Positions 10,473 to 34,221 of a DNA stretch of 51,544 bases are shown piece after piece. Position 1 is the first letter of the stretch. Each line of letters begins with the position of its first letter. Under the pieces are notes generated by a model, which was not told where the DNA came from, made no database searches, and saw only the letters and a program-made list of their open reading frames with translations. The position numbers were made by a program, and so were the translations under genes. Source of the stretch: a virus. The stretch lies in IMG/VR virus record IMGVR_UViG_3300011008_000187; one strand, 5' to 3'.

Positions 10473-11663
10473 ATGAGCGAGATCACAACGATTGTCAACG
10501 CATGGGCGGTTGTGTGTTGCTTTGGCTGGCTGATCGAGGCGTTTCGGAACGCACGCAAGGGCAAGAGATACCGGGCCGAGGTCATGGCCTTTACCGCGCA
10601 TCTGGAGGATTACCTGCTTATCATTCAGGCGGGCATGATCGCGGGAGACTATGAGCTGGGGCCATATCGCAAGCTGTGGGTATTCGTGCCGAAGAAGCGC
10701 CTCGTTATGGCGCTGCCGTTCCCGGACAGGATCGTGCAATGGAGCCTGTATCTCTATCTCAACCCGATATTCGACAGGCTGATGATCGAGGACAGCTACG
10801 CTTGCAGGAAAGAAAAAGGGAGCCACAAGGCGGCAAAGCGCCTGCAATACTGGATGCGGCAGGTGGACAGGAAGCCGGGGCCGGGATGGTACGTCCTGAA
10901 ACTGGATATATCCAAATACTTCTACCGCATCCATCATGAAAAGCTGCTGGCAATTCTGGCGCGGCGCGTGAAAGACCCGGACATGATGGCATTTCTCCGC
11001 GCTCTGGTGAACAGCCGCGTGGAGCCTTTCGGCTTACCACGCGGGAAGAAGCCGGAGGACATCACGGCGGACGAATGGCTTTACGACGTGGGTATGCCCA
11101 TCGGCAATCTCACGTCGCAGATGTTCGCCAATATCTACCTGAACGAGCTGGATCAGTTTTGCAAGCACAAGCTCAAAATCCATTATTACATCCGCTATAT
11201 GGACGACGTGATTATCATCGGCCCGGACAAGGAAACGCTGAAAGCGTGGAAAGCGAAGATCGAGGCGTTTCTGTGGGACGAGCTGGCGCTTGACCTGAAC
11301 GACAAGACCAGCATCCGGCCTATGCGTCAGGGCGTGGAGTTCGTCGGCCTGCGGATTTGGCCCACGCACATGAAGCTGCGGAAAAGCACCGTGCGGCGGA
11401 TCAAGAACGAGGTGCGCAAATTCAGTGAACGGTATGCCGCTGGAATTTACAGCCGGGAAGAATTTGACCGGCGGATCGCCAGCGTCAGGGGGATGCTGGA
11501 TCATGTGGAGAGTGCGAGCCTGCGCGGACGGCTGAACGAGATTTACCGGGCGGAGCTAAAAAAAGCAGCGGAAAGAAAACTGCGAGAGGAGGCGGAGCAT
11601 GAGCCATTTGCAGATCATCGAAAATCTGGAAATCGTGACGGAGCTGCAAGCAAAGGCGATTAA
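10473..11663 (+). CDS. DGR reverse transcriptase
   Basis: Motifs PFPDRIVQ, IGNLTSQ and YMDD. The ATG at 10473 has AGGAG 12 nt upstream; the ORF-track start at 10419 is less likely. Confidence 0.9.
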   Translation: MSEITTIVNAWAVVCCFGWLIEAFRNARKGKRYRAEVMAFTAHLEDYLLIIQAGMIAGDYELGPYRKLWVFVPKKRLVMALPFPDRIVQWSLYLYLNPIFDRLMIEDSYACRKEKGSHKAAKRLQYWMRQVDRKPGPGWYVLKLDISKYFYRIHHEKLLAILARRVKDPDMMAFLRALVNSRVEPFGLPRGKKPEDITADEWLYDVGMPIGNLTSQMFANIYLNELDQFCKHKLKIHYYIRYMDDVIIIGPDKETLKAWKAKIEAFLWDELALDLNDKTSIRPMRQGVEFVGLRIWPTHMKLRKSTVRRIKNEVRKFSERYAAGIYSREEFDRRIASVRGMLDHVESASLRGRLNEIYRAELKKAAERKLREEAEHEPFADHRKSGNRDGAASKGD

Positions 11664-11769
11664 GGCCCTTGCCACGCGGCTTGCGGAGCTGGGCGATACA
11701 GAAACCGGGCGGGACGAGATCGCGGCGGCGGATGAAGCCTTTAAGCGGATCGTCGGCACGGACATCTGA
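11599..11769 (+). CDS. Small hypothetical protein (56 aa) overlapping the RT 3' end
   Basis: ATG preceded by GAGAGGAGG. Product is helical and acidic (MSHLQIIENLEIV...). Confidence 0.4.
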   Translation: MSHLQIIENLEIVTELQAKAIKALATRLAELGDTETGRDEIAAADEAFKRIVGTDI

Positions 11770-11797
11770 ACAGCAGATACTTTGTCGGGAGGACAAA

Positions 11798-12241
11798 ATG
11801 AGCATTAAGGATATTGTGTTGAATGGGGGCGGCGTGCTGCTTGTCCTGCTGACCATCATACAGATCGCCCCCATCAAGGTAAATCCGTGGTCGGCCATTG
11901 CCCGGCTGCTGGGGAAAGCCATTAACGCCGACGTGCTGAAAAAGCTGGACGACGTGGAGAGCGAGGCCAAGGAGACGCAAAAGACCCTTGACGAGCATAT
12001 CCGAATGGACGACGAGCGGAACGCGGACAGCCACCGGCAGCGGATTTTGCAATTCAATAACGAATTGTTGAGAAATATCCCACACACGGAGGAGGATTTT
12101 ATCGAGGTGCTGGGGGAAATCGACTTCTACGAGGACTACTGCAAAACGCACCCGGAATACAAAAACAACCGTGCGATCCACGCCATTGCGCACATCGGAA
12201 AGGTGTATGACGAACGGCTGGAAAAGCACGACTTTCTGTGA
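11798..12241 (+). CDS. Membrane-anchored protein of unknown function (lysis-module neighbour)
   Basis: ATG at 11798 after GGGAGGAC. One N-terminal transmembrane helix (VLLVLLTIIQIAPI). Confidence 0.6.
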   Translation: MSIKDIVLNGGGVLLVLLTIIQIAPIKVNPWSAIARLLGKAINADVLKKLDDVESEAKETQKTLDEHIRMDDERNADSHRQRILQFNNELLRNIPHTEEDFIEVLGEIDFYEDYCKTHPEYKNNRAIHAIAHIGKVYDERLEKHDFL

Positions 12242-20953: not shown

Positions 20954-21670
20954 GTGCTGGAATTAAACCGCTGCTACAACATGGATTGCATGGAGGGTAT
21001 GGCGCAATTCCCGGACGGATTTTTCGATCTGGCCGTGGTCGATCCGCCGTATGGCGGAGCGGGCGGAGACTTCAAGCGCAGCGATAAGTCACGGTTCGGC
21101 GGGCGGTTCGATCAGTACAAGCCCGGAAATGCTGCGGGGGGGTACTCTGAAAGCGGCATTTACAGAACCGGCGGCGGATGGGCGAGGCAGTACGCCAAAA
21201 AAATCATTGGCTGGGATCATGCGCCCGGCCCGGAGTATTTCAAAGAGCTTTTCCGAGTGAGCAAGCAGCAAATCATATGGGGCGGGAATTACTTTGACCT
21301 GCCGCCAAACCGCTGCTTTATCGTCTGGAATAAAACGAACATCCCGGAAAACTTCTCAATGGCTATGGCGGAATACGCATGGTGCAGCTTCAACGACAAC
21401 GCAAAGATCGTGGCTTGCAGTTCCGCCAGAAAAGGCGAGTGCTATCACCCAACGCAAAAGCCGGTGGCGCTCTACACATGGATTTTTCAGACCTACGCCA
21501 AGGCGGGCGATAAAATCCTCGACACCCATTTGGGGAGCGGGAGCAGCCGGATTGCGGCATATGAGGCCGCGCTGGATTTCGTGGGCTTTGAGATCGACCC
21601 GGACTATTTCAAGACAGAAGAAGAACGGTTCAGGGAACACACAAGCCAAGTGAGCTTGTTCCATCTATAA
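20954..21670 (+). CDS. DNA N6-adenine/N4-cytosine methyltransferase (beta class)
   Basis: DPPYG motif, HPTQKP, and LDTHLGSGSS AdoMet motif. Confidence 0.85.
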   Translation: MLELNRCYNMDCMEGMAQFPDGFFDLAVVDPPYGGAGGDFKRSDKSRFGGRFDQYKPGNAAGGYSESGIYRTGGGWARQYAKKIIGWDHAPGPEYFKELFRVSKQQIIWGGNYFDLPPNRCFIVWNKTNIPENFSMAMAEYAWCSFNDNAKIVACSSARKGECYHPTQKPVALYTWIFQTYAKAGDKILDTHLGSGSSRIAAYEAALDFVGFEIDPDYFKTEEERFREHTSQVSLFHL

Positions 21671-28850: not shown

Positions 28851-29168
28851 TTACTTCTCCGGCGGGAGGCCGGTCAGGGACGGCGGGAGGCCGTTTTTGT
28901 CCAGCGGGCCGTCATACTCCGTCAGGTCGATTTGGGCGACGTGCAGGCCGGTTTCCGGGACGAGCTTATAATACCGGCCCTTTTCGTAATGCTGATCCGT
29001 CACACCGTCATACCACGCCACATCCCCATGCAGTTTTGCGGCGGCGGCGATCTGGTCATAGGCTTGTTTCTCCGTCAGGCCGTCGAACAGGAGCCGGGAG
29101 CCGTCGGCAAACTCCGCCACAAGGCGATAGGGCGCGAACGCCTGCGCGTTTTGTTCTTCCATAGGCAT
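28851..29168 (-). CDS. Hypothetical protein
   Basis: 105 aa. RBS is GGAGG. Confidence 0.55.
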   Translation of the reverse strand: MPMEEQNAQAFAPYRLVAEFADGSRLLFDGLTEKQAYDQIAAAAKLHGDVAWYDGVTDQHYEKGRYYKLVPETGLHVAQIDLTEYDGPLDKNGLPPSLTGLPPEK

Positions 29169-29191
29169 TTCCTCCGTTTTGGTGTGCTGCC

Positions 29192-29231
29192 ATTATAGCA
29201 GGTCAAGCCCCGCTTGTGAACGGGGCTTTTT
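29192..29231 (-). promoter_or_regulatory. Minus-strand promoter (TTCACA-17-TGcTATAAT) overlapping a plus-oriented hairpin plus T-run
   Basis: Reverse complement of 29192-29220 gives TTCACA, 17 nt, TATAAT with an extended TG. The hairpin is gccccg/cggggc followed by TTTTT on the plus strand. Confidence 0.45.
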
Positions 29232-29236
29232 CTGCG

Positions 29237-29614
29237 TCAGGCAAACAGGGCGAATTGCTGCCAGCCTCCGCCTGCGTCCTCCGCGTAAAGCTCCACGGGA
29301 GCGGGCGCGGCGTCGGCGGGAGTGTCACGGAAATAGCCGTTTTCCGCGAGCAGGCCGGTAAAGTTGCGATCCACGCCGCCGGTGCGTTCAAGCCATTCGG
29401 CGTTAGGGATAATACCGGAAAGCACCTCCCGCGTTTCGTCGGCGGTGAACAGATACCACGTATTAACCTCGGTGGGGCTGGGATGGTTGGCGCGGGTAAT
29501 CAACAGCAGATAATCCTCTCCGTCCTTATGCCATATCTGGCGCTCGGTCGTGCGGTCAAAGCGGGCGGTTTCGCGTTCATACTCCGCGATACTGGCAAAG
29601 CCGTGAAACTGCAT
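29237..29614 (-). CDS. Hypothetical protein ending in WQQFALFA
   Basis: 125 aa. The C-terminal motif is shared with 30676..31176. Confidence 0.6.
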   Translation of the reverse strand: MQFHGFASIAEYERETARFDRTTERQIWHKDGEDYLLLITRANHPSPTEVNTWYLFTADETREVLSGIIPNAEWLERTGGVDRNFTGLLAENGYFRDTPADAAPAPVELYAEDAGGGWQQFALFA

Positions 29615-29629
29615 CTTGTGGGCCTCCTT

Positions 29630-29818
29630 TCAGGCGTTTTCATATGGGCGCGTATCTTCTATGCGATAATCTTTATCATTTGGCATGAGCTTTTCAAGCT
29701 CCGCGCGATCATCGGACGCGGCAATATCTTTCCAGCGGTATGTATGGACGGGGAAACTGTGATTGCCGAGGATGTTTGGCCGGGCAACGGCCTCTTTTCG
29801 TTGCAGGCGATAGCGCAT
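29630..29818 (-). CDS. Hypothetical protein (62 aa)
   Basis: The ATG at 29818 is preceded by GGAGG. The longer track ORF to 30001 overlaps the next gene. Confidence 0.45.
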   Translation of the reverse strand: MRYRLQRKEAVARPNILGNHSFPVHTYRWKDIAASDDRAELEKLMPNDKDYRIEDTRPYENA

Positions 29819-29912
29819 GATATAAACCTCCGTTTCGTGTGTTTTGGGCTTTTGCTCATGGGATCGGGCCGATTTGGAGCGGTGCGGCCCGTTCAGGGTG
29901 TCCGCGTGCGGG

Positions 29913-30287
29913 CTATTCTTCCGTGGTGAGCTGGATAAACGATCCTGCATACTCGCAAATGCGCGTGGGGTGCAGCCCGTCGTCAATACTGGCCCTGTCA
30001 ATGAAAGACGACATTTTGTTTGTCCAGAGGTTCAGCACGGCAAGCGCCCATTCAAGGCCCCATTCGTCCAGCCGTTCCCGGCGCGTGTAGAGCGTGGACG
30101 CGACGCACAGAGCGGTCACGGCCCTGCCGTGCGTTTTCAGACAATCGTTGAAATGCTCGCGGACTTTCGGCGTGGAAAGGTCTTTGCTTGCGGCCCGGAC
30201 TTTGTTCAGAGTGTCAAACCGGGCCTCTCGTGTCCCGTCACCATTCAGGGCCTTTATTTCCCGCGCAAGCGTGCGATCAAGTTTCAT
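29913..30287 (-). CDS. DUF3849-like protein
   Basis: ..HGRAVTALCVASTLYTRRERLDEWGLEWA.. resembles the DUF3849 core seen in Firmicutes ICEs. Recognised from memory only. Confidence 0.4.
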   Translation of the reverse strand: MKLDRTLAREIKALNGDGTREARFDTLNKVRAASKDLSTPKVREHFNDCLKTHGRAVTALCVASTLYTRRERLDEWGLEWALAVLNLWTNKMSSFIDRASIDDGLHPTRICEYAGSFIQLTTEE

Positions 30288-30302
30288 CTTGTGGGCCTCC
30301 TT

Positions 30303-30629
30303 TCAGGCAGCACCGGCGGCGCAGGCGCGGCGCAGGTCGTCATACTCCGGCGCAAGCTCAACGACGCCTCCGGCGATTTCGTTGTTGTGGTAGAGCGTGC
30401 TGGTTTCCACGTTCTCAAATACCACCGTCCAAGCAAAGGAGCGGAGCGGGAGGAGGCCGTCGCCCATGTGAGCCAGCGGATCGGAGCCGCGCCGCCAGTC
30501 AATGCAGAGCTGCCCGGTGCGCGGGTGCTTCTGGATCGTGAACACTTCCCCATGGTTGCGGGTCTTGATCTCACAGCGGCGGGGCCATTCAATCATGTGA
30601 ACGCGGATTTTGTCATTTTCGTGCAGCAT
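30303..30629 (-). CDS. Hypothetical protein
   Basis: 108 aa. Confidence 0.5.
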   Translation of the reverse strand: MLHENDKIRVHMIEWPRRCEIKTRNHGEVFTIQKHPRTGQLCIDWRRGSDPLAHMGDGLLPLRSFAWTVVFENVETSTLYHNNEIAGGVVELAPEYDDLRRACAAGAA

Positions 30630-30675
30630 TTTGGTTTCCTTTCTGCCCTCGTGACCTCCGGGGCGGGCTTTGTGT

Positions 30676-31176
30676 TCAGGCGAAAAGCGCGTATTGCATC
30701 CAGTCGGGAGCGGGAGCGGCGGCGGGCGTTTCGTCGTCCTCGTCGGTTTCGTCCGGCTGGTAAACGTCCGGGGAAAATCCCTGCTCCGCTATGTTTTTCA
30801 GCCATTGCCAGAGGAAGCCGTCAAGCTCCGTCCGCAGGCCGGGCCGGTAACGCTCGCGCCCGTCGTCGCCCGTGAGATAAACCTCCTGATACAAGCCCAT
30901 ATAGTCATTCTGGAACGTGAGCGGGTCAACGGTTCCGGCCTTGTGGTCAACGCTGATCGTCATATCGGGATCGCGCATGGCGTCGCCGTTCTGCTCGCCG
31001 TAGTGGGTGACACTGTACACCTTGCCGCCGTGGAACGTATAGCCGAGGTATTCCACGACGAGCGGCATATACCCGCCGGAGAGAAAACGCCGGGCGCGTT
31101 CCGGGCTGGCGTCCGTGGCCGCTAAAAACGGCTGGATCATGCGATAGTTGGTTGTGGCGTGTTTTGTGGGTTTCAT
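30676..31176 (-). CDS. Hypothetical protein ending in acidic linker plus WMQYALFA
   Basis: 166 aa. RBS is GGAGG. Confidence 0.6.
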   Translation of the reverse strand: MKPTKHATTNYRMIQPFLAATDASPERARRFLSGGYMPLVVEYLGYTFHGGKVYSVTHYGEQNGDAMRDPDMTISVDHKAGTVDPLTFQNDYMGLYQEVYLTGDDGRERYRPGLRTELDGFLWQWLKNIAEQGFSPDVYQPDETDEDDETPAAAPAPDWMQYALFA

Positions 31177-31196
31177 GGGATTATACCTCCGTTTCG

Positions 31197-31421
31197 TTAT
31201 CTTCTCACTACATACCCGGCCTCAAGCCATGCGCGGGCCGTCGGGCCGTCTTGCAGCGGTTCACAGGCGAAAAAGGCGATTGTTCCGGCGGGGCGCGGTT
31301 CCAGATTGGGCCGGGCGGCGGCGAACAGCTCCGCGTATGCCGTGTAAAGGAACGGAGCCTCCTCCGGCGTCAGTTCGTCCGGCTGGACGGGGCGACCGGG
31401 CCATTGATATGCTTTGCTCAT
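31197..31421 (-). CDS. Hypothetical protein (74 aa)
   Basis: RBS is CAGGAGG. Confidence 0.5.
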   Translation of the reverse strand: MSKAYQWPGRPVQPDELTPEEAPFLYTAYAELFAAARPNLEPRPAGTIAFFACEPLQDGPTARAWLEAGYVVRR

Positions 31422-31446
31422 TTCGTGATCCTCCTGTTTTGGTTTT

Positions 31447-31512
31447 GGCCTGCCATCATCGGCGGCGGGCGGCCATTCCCGCCGGACGGAGCCGGGCGGC
31501 CCCGTTTCGGCT
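31447..31512 (-). repeat. Structured intergenic repeat, copy 1
   Basis: 66 bp, differing from copy 3 at 1 position. Contains two GC-rich hairpins. Confidence 0.8.
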
Positions 31513-31514
31513 TG

Positions 31515-32432
31515 TTATGCGAGCTTCAAAACGCGGCGGGCGGCGCGTTCTGCGTTCTCGGTAAGCTGGCGCTGCCATGCCTGATTTTTTGGCGACCAGC
31601 GGAAGCCCTCGCCTTTCAGGGCCTCGCGCGTCTCCGCGTCCGGGATCGCGTCGAATACGATTTGCAGCCGGTTTAACTCCACGTTGCGGACGATCTGCCC
31701 GCCGTCAAACTCCGTCGCGCTGTCGGGCGCGTCCTGCCGGGCTTGCAGCTTGTCCAGTTCCTCCAGCCGGGCCGCCGTGCGCTTGATCCTCTCGCGGATG
31801 CTGGATAGCTCATAATCGGGATAGGGCTTGTATAGCTCCGGACGCGGTGTGTGCTCTTTTACGCTGGCGTCCAGCCGGGCGGCGGCCTCGTCGGTGACGC
31901 CGGGGCAGCCCTTGAAAGTCTTGTGCTTCCTGTAATGGGCGTTTACCTCCTTGGCGCGGGCCTGCTTCTTTTGGAGCTTTTCGAGGCGCTCCGTCAAAAT
32001 CTCGCGGGCGTGGGGATCTGTCAGGTCAACGGGGCCGGTGCCGATTTCGGTTATTCTGTCGCGGATCGCCTGAATTTCGTTGTACTCTTTCCAAAGCGCA
32101 TCCTCGCGGCCCTGCTGCTTTTCGTGCTTGCGTCCAAAGTGTTTTCCGTAGTTGCTGCCGCCGGTGATAAAGGACGAGGGACAGCTTGCCGTGTTGCGGT
32201 TGTGGGCGTTTGTCCAGTCCGCGAGGCGCTTTGCGTAGCGGTCAACGGCGGCGTCGATGCGGTCATGATAGAACGGGCTGACGCGCTTCTTGTGCTGCTC
32301 GGCAATCTCGGCGGCCCCGTCCACGGCGGCGCGGTATTCCGCCGTTGCGCTGCCGGGCTTGTAGTCGCTCATGGAATACGCCTCCAGCGCCCTGCGTGCG
32401 GTCTGTTCGTCGATTTCGTAATAGTTCGGCAT
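31515..32432 (-). CDS. DUF3560-like protein
   Basis: The C-terminus RLQIVFDAIPDAETREALKGEGFRWSPKNQAWQRQLT is typical of DUF3560 (plasmid/ICE/phage). The ATG at 32432 follows CAGGAGG. Confidence 0.55.
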   Translation of the reverse strand: MPNYYEIDEQTARRALEAYSMSDYKPGSATAEYRAAVDGAAEIAEQHKKRVSPFYHDRIDAAVDRYAKRLADWTNAHNRNTASCPSSFITGGSNYGKHFGRKHEKQQGREDALWKEYNEIQAIRDRITEIGTGPVDLTDPHAREILTERLEKLQKKQARAKEVNAHYRKHKTFKGCPGVTDEAAARLDASVKEHTPRPELYKPYPDYELSSIRERIKRTAARLEELDKLQARQDAPDSATEFDGGQIVRNVELNRLQIVFDAIPDAETREALKGEGFRWSPKNQAWQRQLTENAERAARRVLKLA

Positions 32433-32997
32433 GGTGTAAACCTCCTGTTTTGGTTTTGGTGTTTGGCCTGCCATCATCAGCGCCGGGAGGCCAGTTCCGG
32501 CGGACGGGCCGCGCGGCCCGTTTCGGCTCCGTGCGGGAGAGCGGCGCGGCGGGCGTCTCGGTGGCCTGCTCCGGCGCGGCCTGCTCCATCACGGGAGCGG
32601 GAGCGACGGCGGGCGTTTCGTCGCTTCCCTGCTCCACCGGCGCGGCGGGCGTGGTGCCCACGCTGCCGGTTTCGTCGTCGCTGCCGTCGGTGCGCCTGAC
32701 CTGCGAAACGTGGAACAGGTGCGACAGCTTTTTGTAATAATGCGGATCGTCGGGCAGCTCCTCCCCGGCGGCCTCCGCCGCTTCCCGCAGGGCCTTGGCC
32801 GGGCGCGTCGTGTATTTCCAGAGGTCAACGTGAAGCATGGCCTTTTCGCCCTTTTTCACGCTGTAGCCGCGGGCTTTCCACTCTTGGAACGTGTGCAGCG
32901 GGATCATGTGCCCGGAGGCAAGGATCGCGTTTACCTGCTCCTCGGTGTAAATGCCCTGTTCAACGGCGGCACTGCAAATGATTTCGTTGTTTGTCAT
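32263..32997 (-). CDS. ArdC-N-like (ssDNA-binding/antirestriction-type) domain protein; 3' end doubtful
   Basis: N-terminal ..IPLHTFQEWKARGYSVKKGEKA.. resembles the ArdC N-domain. The ORF has no stop before repeat copy 2 and runs 170 nt into the next gene. Confidence 0.45.
   Translation of the reverse strand: MTNNEIICSAAVEQGIYTEEQVNAILASGHMIPLHTFQEWKARGYSVKKGEKAMLHVDLWKYTTRPAKALREAAEAAGEELPDDPHYYKKLSHLFHVSQVRRTDGSDDETGSVGTTPAAPVEQGSDETPAVAPAPVMEQAAPEQATETPAAPLSRTEPKRAARPVRRNWPPGADDGRPNTKTKTGGLHHAELLRNRRTDRTQGAGGVFHERLQARQRNGGIPRRRGRGRRDCRAAQEARQPVLS
32465..32528 (-). repeat. Structured intergenic repeat, copy 2 (diverged)
   Basis: Same architecture as copies 1 and 3, with a compensatory G-C to C-G change in hairpin A. 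Confidence 0.7.
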
Positions 32998-33031
32998 GGT
33001 GATAACCTCCCGTTAAAAATTCGTTGTGTTT

Positions 33032-33097
33032 GGCCTGCCATCATCGGCGGCGGGCGGCCATTCCCGCCGGACGGGGCCGGGCGGCCCCGTTTCGGCT
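33032..33097 (-). repeat. Structured intergenic repeat, copy 3
   Basis: 66 bp, differing from copy 1 at 1 position. Confidence 0.8.
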
Positions 33098-33111
33098 GTT
33101 TGGGTTTTAGT

Positions 33112-34083
33112 TCAGGCGACGCGGATATAATAGGCGCTGCGCTTGCCGCTCCACTTGGCACCGGCGGCGCGGATCGCGTCGGCGTGCTTTTCGGTATCGC
33201 CTGCAAGCCATACCACCGGCGCGGCGGTGCCTGCGCCCTTGATAACGGCCCGCACGCCGTCCAGCTCCGTAAACCGGGCCGCTATGATCTCGGCGGCGCT
33301 TCTCATGTCCACCGGCGCGGCGGGCGTCTCGGCGGCCTGCTCCGGCGCGGCCTGCTCCGCGTGCAGCTTGTCCAGCTCGGCGCGGAGGGTGCCGATCTCG
33401 GCGGCCTGCTCGGTGATCTTGTCCAGCATTGCGGCGCGTTCGATCTCGGCGGCCTGCGCCGCGTCGCGGGCGGCGTCCAGCTCGGCGCGGATCGTTTCAA
33501 GCTCGGCGGCGTTTGTTTCGGCGGGCTTGTCCTCGGCGGCCTGCTCCGCCGTGAAAAACGCCTTGACAGCGCGGGCGGCGTCGGGCTTTGCCCGGACGGG
33601 CAGCACCATGGCGACGGCCTCCTCCCCGTCGTAAAAGACGGCGGGCGCGGCGGCGCTGTTTGCGCGGATCGTCAAGCCGGAGTAAAGCGGCGAGGTGTAA
33701 AGCTGATTGTAAAAGGCCGCAAATCCGGCGGGGCTGTAATAGCTGGAAAGCGTGCCGCCCTTGTCAACGGCAAAATCAGCCGGGCAGCGGTTCAGGGCCT
33801 CGCCCGTGCAGGCGTTCACGGTATCGCGGAAAGTTTTGATAACGTCAAAATCCGCCGGGCCTGCCTCGCGCTTTTCGCCGTTCTCAATGATCCAGTTGCC
33901 CGGATCGCATTTGGTGACGGGCTGCACCGTGGCGGCGTATTCATCCGGGCGCATACGGTACACAAAATAGCCGGTGCAGGTGTAGATCATTCCGTCCTCG
34001 TCGATCCGGCAGAAAAGCCGCCCGCCCGCGCTCTTGAGGGCCTTGCCCGCGTCGCTGCTGTAATTGCCTGTAAACTTTTTCAT
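33112..34083 (-). CDS. Hypothetical protein with central Ala/Glu coiled coil
   Basis: The ATG at 34083 follows GGGAGG. The C-terminal ..AGAKWSGKRSAYYIRV resembles the DUF3560 C-terminal module. Confidence 0.6.
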   Translation of the reverse strand: MKKFTGNYSSDAGKALKSAGGRLFCRIDEDGMIYTCTGYFVYRMRPDEYAATVQPVTKCDPGNWIIENGEKREAGPADFDVIKTFRDTVNACTGEALNRCPADFAVDKGGTLSSYYSPAGFAAFYNQLYTSPLYSGLTIRANSAAAPAVFYDGEEAVAMVLPVRAKPDAARAVKAFFTAEQAAEDKPAETNAAELETIRAELDAARDAAQAAEIERAAMLDKITEQAAEIGTLRAELDKLHAEQAAPEQAAETPAAPVDMRSAAEIIAARFTELDGVRAVIKGAGTAAPVVWLAGDTEKHADAIRAAGAKWSGKRSAYYIRVA

Positions 34084-34221
34084 GATGAAACCTCCCAAAT
34101 TTTTATTGATTTTTTCCCGCCGCCGTGTTACCATGGGAGCAAGTGAGGCGGGGCACCTGCTCCCGTTTCCTACCGTGAAATAGTCGCTTGCTGTCGAGGC
34201 GGGGCGGCTATTTCTTTTTTG

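Follow-up and report, generated by a model that had tools for sequence, protein, structure and literature searches.

Why should two small proteins with unrelated bodies, encoded in one island of a phage, end in the same short tail? The question arises in a stretch of viral DNA of 51,544 nucleotides (IMG/VR record IMGVR_UViG_3300011008_000187; we refer to this whole stretch as the window), in which a 125-amino-acid protein (family A) and a 166-amino-acid protein (family B, a DUF6908 protein) both finish with a linker rich in proline, alanine, and acidic residues, followed by W-x-Q-(F/Y)-A-L-F-A. We propose that these tails are a portable module, consisting of a disordered linker plus a motif, that binds the cleft of the host's beta clamp (DnaN), and from the sequences we consider this likely. 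In that case, the host's replication clamp would probably carry accessory proteins that the phage supplies. An initial annotation of this DNA had already pointed to both proteins and to the similarity of their tails to a clamp-binding motif. Both open reading frames (ORFs) and both tails are present as it described; it did not mention the strand, and both genes are on the minus strand. The features are as follows (pLDDT is the confidence score of the AlphaFold2 models):

29237-29614, minus strand: family A ORF, 125 amino acids, ending in ...AEDAGGGWQQFALFA, that is, WQQFALFA
29318..29614, minus strand: family A folded body (residues 1-99), a helix plus an antiparallel sheet; pLDDT of about 70-94
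29264..29317, minus strand: family A Pro/Ala/acidic linker (residues 100-117), which varies among homologues; pLDDT below 50 over residues 100-125
29240..29263, minus strand: family A tail WQQFALFA (core QFALF), proposed to bind the clamp; conserved in homologues
30676-31176, minus strand: family B ORF, 166 amino acids, ending in ...AAPAPDWMQYALFA, that is, WMQYALFA
30775..31176, minus strand: family B DUF6908 body (PF21849; residues 1-134); pLDDT of 87-98 over residues 1-131
30703..30774, minus strand: family B acidic Pro/Ala linker (residues 135-158); pLDDT of 62-73; missing from most DUF6908 homologues
30679..30702, minus strand: family B tail WMQYALFA (core QYALF), proposed to bind the clamp; variants occur in tailed homologues

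Translating the window in all six frames gives just two occurrences of the pattern W.Q[FY]A[LIMF]F. We also scanned 325 stop-to-stop ORFs of at least 80 amino acids (55,778 residues) with a strict clamp-motif pattern, Q[LFYIMV][SDAEGNTK][LM]F. There were three matches, all within the last 8 residues of real genes: family A, family B, and an N6/N4 DNA methylase. After shuffling the residues, we would expect 0.89 matches anywhere and 0.021 matches at C-termini, and two or more C-terminal matches were found in 0 of 2000 shuffles. So, while both of the tailed proteins in the initial annotation stand, the count for the window is three. All three tails (QFALF, QYALF, and QVSLF) have the Q-hydrophobic-x-L-F form of the beta-clamp-binding motif (CBM), and the core Q-[FY]-A-L-F fits the consensus QL[SD]LF as quoted in PMC12867686.

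The similarity between families A and B is confined to their ends, as the initial annotation had noted: BLASTP aligned residues 97-125 of A with residues 149-166 of B, which is to say the linker and the tail, and left the bodies unaligned. The codons for the two tails differ at synonymous positions (GCC/GCG, CTG/CTT, and TTT/TTC), and the two genes have unrelated DNA beyond their stop codons. The tails are therefore not a recent DNA copy of each other, and we rejected a recent duplication of the tail. When we scanned for DNA encoding the exact tail, we found three matches in IMG/VR, all of which were the same spurious 37-amino-acid frame, and 24 matches in GTDB genomes (estimated to be near chance), 0 of which fell at a real gene's C-terminus; these scans speak to the rarity of this exact 8-mer and to nothing more.

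If the tail has a function, then it should be maintained in homologues. In family A, it is: all 17 of 17 near homologues retain it. Across these homologues, Q120, L123, and F124 are invariant, even in proteins that are just 38% identical, and W118 and A122 are kept in at least 90% of the 17. In contrast, the linker varies in both length and sequence, with indels. A conserved motif beside a variable flanking linker is what is expected for a CBM client. Furthermore, the codons of the tail vary synonymously while the peptide is constant, which implies selection on the peptide.

More distant relatives of family A were identified by a profile search against 1.84 billion representatives, which yielded 55 proteins. 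Full-length members end in QLSLFAM, QLSLFA, QLSLFG, QLSLFSI, QMSLF, QISLF, or QFSLF, or else in QYSLFA, QLSFFSF, Q[IL]CFLF, QALFPLA, or QLLLPI. Among the 33 tailed members, the first position of the motif is always Q (33/33); the second is Y, L, F, I, A, or M; the third is A, S, C, or L; the fourth is L (28 proteins) or F (5 proteins); and the fifth is F in 27 proteins and otherwise L or P. After the motif come 0 to 3 further residues. The matches that lack a tail are mostly fragments of 85-100 amino acids or fusions. The reported resemblance to the clamp-binding consensus extends beyond the window: Q, L, and F do not vary among the near homologues of family A, and distant homologues have QLSLF, QMSLF, or QISLF. 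Some family A domains are fused into proteins of 241-417 amino acids (P0142, P0146, P0147, P0148, and P0160, all of them profile matches), and one fusion ends in ...AGAKWSNKRAAFYVRVA, a sequence that matches the C-terminus of a 325-amino-acid island protein in a related phage (L049, 3623-4600).

The body of family A gave few clues. It has no match in Pfam, PHROG, or NCBIfam, and neither tblastn against INPHARED nor peptide patterns against IMG/VR identified a family A protein. Searches by fold gave no clear match: the best Foldseek match had E = 0.1 (an Rhs immunity protein), the best VIA match had Z = 5.9, and the matches were a mixture of small folds that resemble inhibitors and immunity proteins. 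Sequence profiles of the PDB gave no relative of either A or B at E of 0.01 or less. A feature search of the Atlas with family A likewise yielded no usable result.

In both proteins, the motif is exposed at the extreme C-terminus, and the linker before it has low pLDDT (in family B, 62-73 across the linker and the tail), which is an indirect sign of disorder. This agrees with the flexible linker that was originally described, and we think that the linkers are probably disordered. Both proteins are acidic (pI of about 4.5).

Family B adds a second line of evidence, because its homologues differ in whether they have the tail. The protein belongs to DUF6908: residues 26-134 match PF21849 with E = 3.3e-34 and 117.8 bits (the gathering cut-off is 27). 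Most DUF6908 proteins have 130-145 amino acids and end just past the core (...WLKNIxEQGF), without a linker or a tail, while a minority continue into a linker, which is acidic and rich in Pro/Ala, and then a tail. The expectation that homologues would share the tail therefore fails for most of DUF6908, but the tails of the minority vary within known motif classes, and the tail-less majority implies that the tail is modular rather than noise. The variants include DWQQ[FY]ALFA, QYRLF, QIALF, QLSLL or QLSLLA, and QLSILAG, as well as QALFLLA, QVLFPA, QFPFPFA, and QYAIPGA. By sequence, these resemble the pentapeptide, hexapeptide, and MutL-like classes of clamp motif. (Examples of the hexapeptide class are QLSLPL in Hda and QLVLGL in Pol IV.)

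We did not find any paper that mentions DUF6908. The predicted structure of family B has a helix, a seven-stranded antiparallel sheet, and another helix, which is the order of secondary structures in the p32/Mam33/gC1qR fold, and the five best VIA matches are all chains of this type. Their scores are low, however (Z = 7.2 for VC0508, and then 5.4-4.9), and Foldseek gave E = 0.12 or worse against this fold, so the similarity of the model to p32 is suggestive only. The structural matches include the Vibrio cholerae island proteins VC0508 and VC1805. In Clostridia genomes, DUF6908 lies within ORFs of 1241-3036 amino acids in 7 of the 9 genomes with a match. One such protein, with 3034 amino acids (L135 5323-14427, plus strand; G013:C8), combines MutS_I (MutS domain I), DUF6908, an Eco57I-type methylase, and an SNF2/ResIII helicase; this combination is the make-up of the polyvalent proteins of mobile elements.

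The third match to the strict pattern lies outside of the block of small genes and on the other strand:

20954..21670, plus strand: N6/N4 DNA methyltransferase (PF01555, E = 1.2e-12), which ends in the tail QVSLFHL (21647-21667) and is the third candidate for a clamp client

A related phage (L050) encodes a methylase with an identical tail. More broadly, homologous methylases from phages of six host genera (L067-L074) have a Q..LF motif either at the C-terminus or close to it. The C-terminus is QQKLF in a Flavobacterium phage, QLKLF in a Streptococcus phage, QTSLFGV in a Bacteroides phage, QMELFDI in a Staphylococcus phage, and QISLFDEV in a Lactococcus phage; in a Tetrasphaera phage, QAVLF is followed by further residues. 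These hosts span the Bacteroidota, the Bacillota, and the Actinomycetota. Because the tail is kept across phyla, its partner should be present in all bacteria, and the clamp is such a partner. By sequence, the tail suggests that methylation is coupled to replication via the host's clamp, much as eukaryotic Dnmt1 is linked to PCNA. A full-text literature search returned no paper whose title and abstract indicated that clamp tails on phage methylases were its subject. Similar ends are also seen in three other phage DNA-modification enzymes (L003 9740-10612, plus strand; L051 18550-19611, minus strand; and L020 16785-17666, minus strand): two D12-class adenine methylases end in ...NPQLTLF and ...EPQESLM, and a protein with a PAPS-reductase domain ends in ...DDCQIGLF.

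Families A and B are encoded within an island of small genes (28851-34134), along with two other proteins that bear on the history of the tails:

31515..32477, minus strand: phrog_19458 protein (E = 3e-105; annotated as "primase"), ending in ...RRVLKLA, without a tail in the window
32263..32997, minus strand: ArdC-N-like ORF (a weak match to ArdcN, E = 4.4e-4, and matches to anti-restriction PHROGs), with a linker and without a tail in the window

No island protein matches NCBIfam. The ArdC-N-like ORF of the window keeps a Pro/Ala/acidic linker, and its frame runs through an intergenic hairpin repeat into the next gene. In its homologues, a linker is followed by a terminal DQDQMTLY (L049) or SGNLSLF (L134), so the copy in the window appears to have lost its tail along with its stop codon.

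In related phages, the set of tailed proteins differs. In L047, the tailed proteins are A and B, and in L050 they are A, B, and the methylase. In L049, they are A (DWEQFALF); the homologue of phrog_19458, which has a 55-residue acidic extension, made up of a linker and the end ...EGWEQASIFG; and the ArdC-N-like protein, which ends in ...DIDQDQMTLY. In L134, four consecutive genes are tailed, and they end in ...SGNLSLF, ...DGQALFPLA, ...DGQALFPLA, and ...DDGQICFLF; of these, the ArdC-N-like homologue ends in ...DSGNLSLF and the phrog_19458 homologue in ...ADGQALFPLA. So the lineage of the window has W.Q[FY]ALF tails while L134 has DGQALFPLA or DGQICFLF tails. Comparing these four phages, the type of tail shifts jointly, lineage by lineage, in proteins whose bodies are unrelated.

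The DNA of L134 also hints at how this happens. Its DUF6908 and phrog_19458 genes are near-identical in DNA over the final 13 or so codons (...DGQALFPLA), and on both genes the 40 nucleotides of tail-coding DNA are continuous with a repeated intergenic element downstream, into which the identity extends (10555-10684 and 11684-11813). By its sequence, the tail acts together with the repeat as a single mobile cassette, and its continuity with the repeat implies that tails spread by recombination. Furthermore, the codon sets for QFALF and QYALF are each found on both A bodies and B bodies, so that alleles of the tail have been swapped.

Docking to DnaN fits every sequence-level test that we ran and is supported at that level. 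Some points do weigh against it. In the close clade, the conserved tryptophan two residues before the Q and the alanine at position 3 of the motif are outside of the textbook consensus, which would allow for a different partner of similar taste. Also, part of the identity of the tails within a phage is due to recent DNA exchange, as in L134, rather than to independent selection. In DinB from five unrelated low-GC Clostridia, none of them the host, we did not see a motif at the C-terminus, which is uninformative either way.

The atypical tryptophan and alanine lead to the alternative that fares best, which we nevertheless consider unlikely: a host hub protein, or a protein encoded in the island, might recognize the acidic linker and the hydrophobic C-terminus. 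The tailed small proteins are all in one island, which would suit an island-internal complex. However, distant homologues of family A have a plain QLSLF without the tryptophan; the conservation of the methylase's tail in phages from unrelated phyla argues for a universal bacterial partner; and no conserved candidate for the receptor was seen in the island across the window, L049, and L134.

It is less probable still that the tail is an ssrA-like degron, recognized by ClpXP or a similar protease, that limits the lifetime of early proteins. A hydrophobic C-terminus that ends in alanine after a flexible linker might act in this way, and ...ALFA bears a loose resemblance to the ...ALAA with which ssrA tags end. 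But ssrA-type recognition relies on the terminal residues and the carboxylate, and in these tails the last residue differs between proteins or is absent (A, G, S, none, HL, or AG), while the Q at five to six residues before the C-terminus never varies, and neither do the upstream L and F. Variants such as QLSILAG, QALFPLA, and QVSLFHL are also unlike known degrons.

The repeated unit on two genes of L134 and the swapping of tail alleles between A and B could also be taken to mean that the tail is just a recombination scar, without a function of its own, that moves from gene to gene with the neighboring repeats; this is very improbable, as exchange accounts for the spread of the tails and not for their retention, the peptide is preserved despite synonymous divergence, the Q, L, and F persist in homologues down to 38% identity, and in the window the genes for A and B have unrelated DNA beyond their stop codons. 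We also rejected mimicry of the tail of SSB: the tip of SSB requires the carboxylate of a terminal phenylalanine, and in these tails the residue after the phenylalanine is variable.

To return to docking on the clamp, what would it do for the phage? The window is from a tailed phage with 60% GC content. It encodes a gpA-type terminase, a lambda-type portal, a ClpP-like protease, capsid protein E, a tape measure protein, and baseplate J; it also encodes the reverse transcriptase of a diversity-generating retroelement, a C5 DNA methylase, and the N6/N4 DNA methylase, as well as a Rep ORF2/G2P-type initiator and a sigma-70 region-4-like protein. This is a Faecalibacterium-type gut phage of the temperate type. 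The closest named relative is Faecalibacterium phage FP_Toutatis, with nucleotide identity of about 69% across part of the island. FP_Toutatis lacks both family A and family B (DUF6908), and family A was not found in the nearest virus record (G001). FP_Toutatis does have an 83-amino-acid ORF (L021 1284-1535, plus strand) that ends in ...PEGQVSFL, which is possibly a weak tail of the same kind.

We did not identify a DNA polymerase or a clamp domain among the ORFs of the window that we scanned. Together with the rolling-circle-type Rep, this implies that the phage's DNA is probably copied by the host's replisome and would bear host clamps. The motif at the end of the linker would insert into the hydrophobic cleft between domains II and III of DnaN, which is the site that serves polymerases and repair proteins. 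The tails would thereby tether family A, DUF6908, and the methylase to clamp-marked phage DNA, whether newly entered or replicating; in related phages, the tethered set would include the ArdC-N-like and phrog_19458 proteins as well. Once there, these proteins would perform establishment, modification, or anti-defense work on the phage's DNA. The host's clamp clients would also face competition, either as a side effect or as a second function. Because DNA-acting enzymes bear the same tail, we favor tethering of the island proteins and the methylase over pure inhibition of the clamp. In short, we infer that DnaN is the partner and that tethering is the purpose, and we do so from the motif, its conservation, its modularity, the low-confidence linkers, and the co-variation of the tails.

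More tentatively, the minus-strand island as a whole might be a set of clamp-riding establishment and anti-defense proteins with exchangeable cassettes, in which the type of tail (W.Q[FY]ALF or DGQALFPLA) tracks the cleft of the host's DnaN. We think that this broader idea is possible but would not bet on it. If it is correct, then the type of tail is a determinant of host range, and the clamp is a general landing pad by which phages mark their own replicating DNA.

If the tails do bind DnaN, then this phage puts a DNA methylase and at least two uncharacterized families on the host's clamp, and DUF6908 and the 125-amino-acid family would gain a testable place of action. The natural variants of the peptide could serve as reporters of the specificity of the clamp's cleft in an important gut commensal. 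The tails would also illustrate how a short linear motif can spread between genes together with an intergenic repeat.

Many clients of the beta clamp have QL[SD]LF or QLxLxL motifs, including Pol II, Pol IV, UmuC, MutS, MutL, and Hda; other clients are TnsE of Tn7, transposases of insertion sequences, TrfA of RK2, and SocB of Caulobacter. Like these clients from cells and mobile elements, the proteins that we describe have a terminal Q-x-x-L-F-type peptide on a flexible segment, with the same spectrum of pentapeptide and hexapeptide variants. Unlike them, the carriers are small phage proteins and a phage methylase, the close clade adds the tryptophan, and binding is predicted. The large DUF6908 proteins of Clostridia recall the polyvalent proteins of phages and conjugative elements that were reportedly described by Iyer, Burroughs, Anand, de Souza, and Aravind in 2017; in contrast, DUF6908 stands alone in this phage, with a clamp-type tail.

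Among phages, the initial annotation had compared the tails to clamp-targeting proteins of staphylococcal phages. Gp168 of phage Twort is likewise a small phage protein that is aimed at the host's beta clamp, but the comparison is weak: Gp168 is reported to occupy and block the DNA sliding channel of the clamp, rather than the cleft for clients, and to do so without a cleft-binding motif (PMC8565349). Phage Mu is closer and offers a published precedent. Its MuC uses clamp-binding motifs on the clamp of E. coli; the motifs of these small regulatory proteins (MuC/Mor) are near the consensus (QHDLF and QPDLF), and overexpression is toxic because it titrates the clamp (PMC12867686, PNAS 2026). As in Mu, a phage without its own clamp would equip small proteins with motifs for the host's clamp. 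MuC is a DNA-binding activator of transcription with motifs at both termini; in contrast, A and B have no recognizable DNA-binding or transcription domain and are encoded in an accessory island, and we found no homology. In phage T4, gp33, gp55, and gp43 bind the gp45 clamp by hydrophobic C-terminal tails, which is the same strategy as in Mu (PMC12867686). As with gp33 and gp55, several unrelated small proteins of one phage share a C-terminal tail that would dock to a clamp, but T4 has its own clamp and another type of tail sequence, while here the host's clamp would serve. If our proposal is correct, then the idea from MuC and from gp33 and gp55 extends from transcription factors to accessory and DNA-modification proteins.

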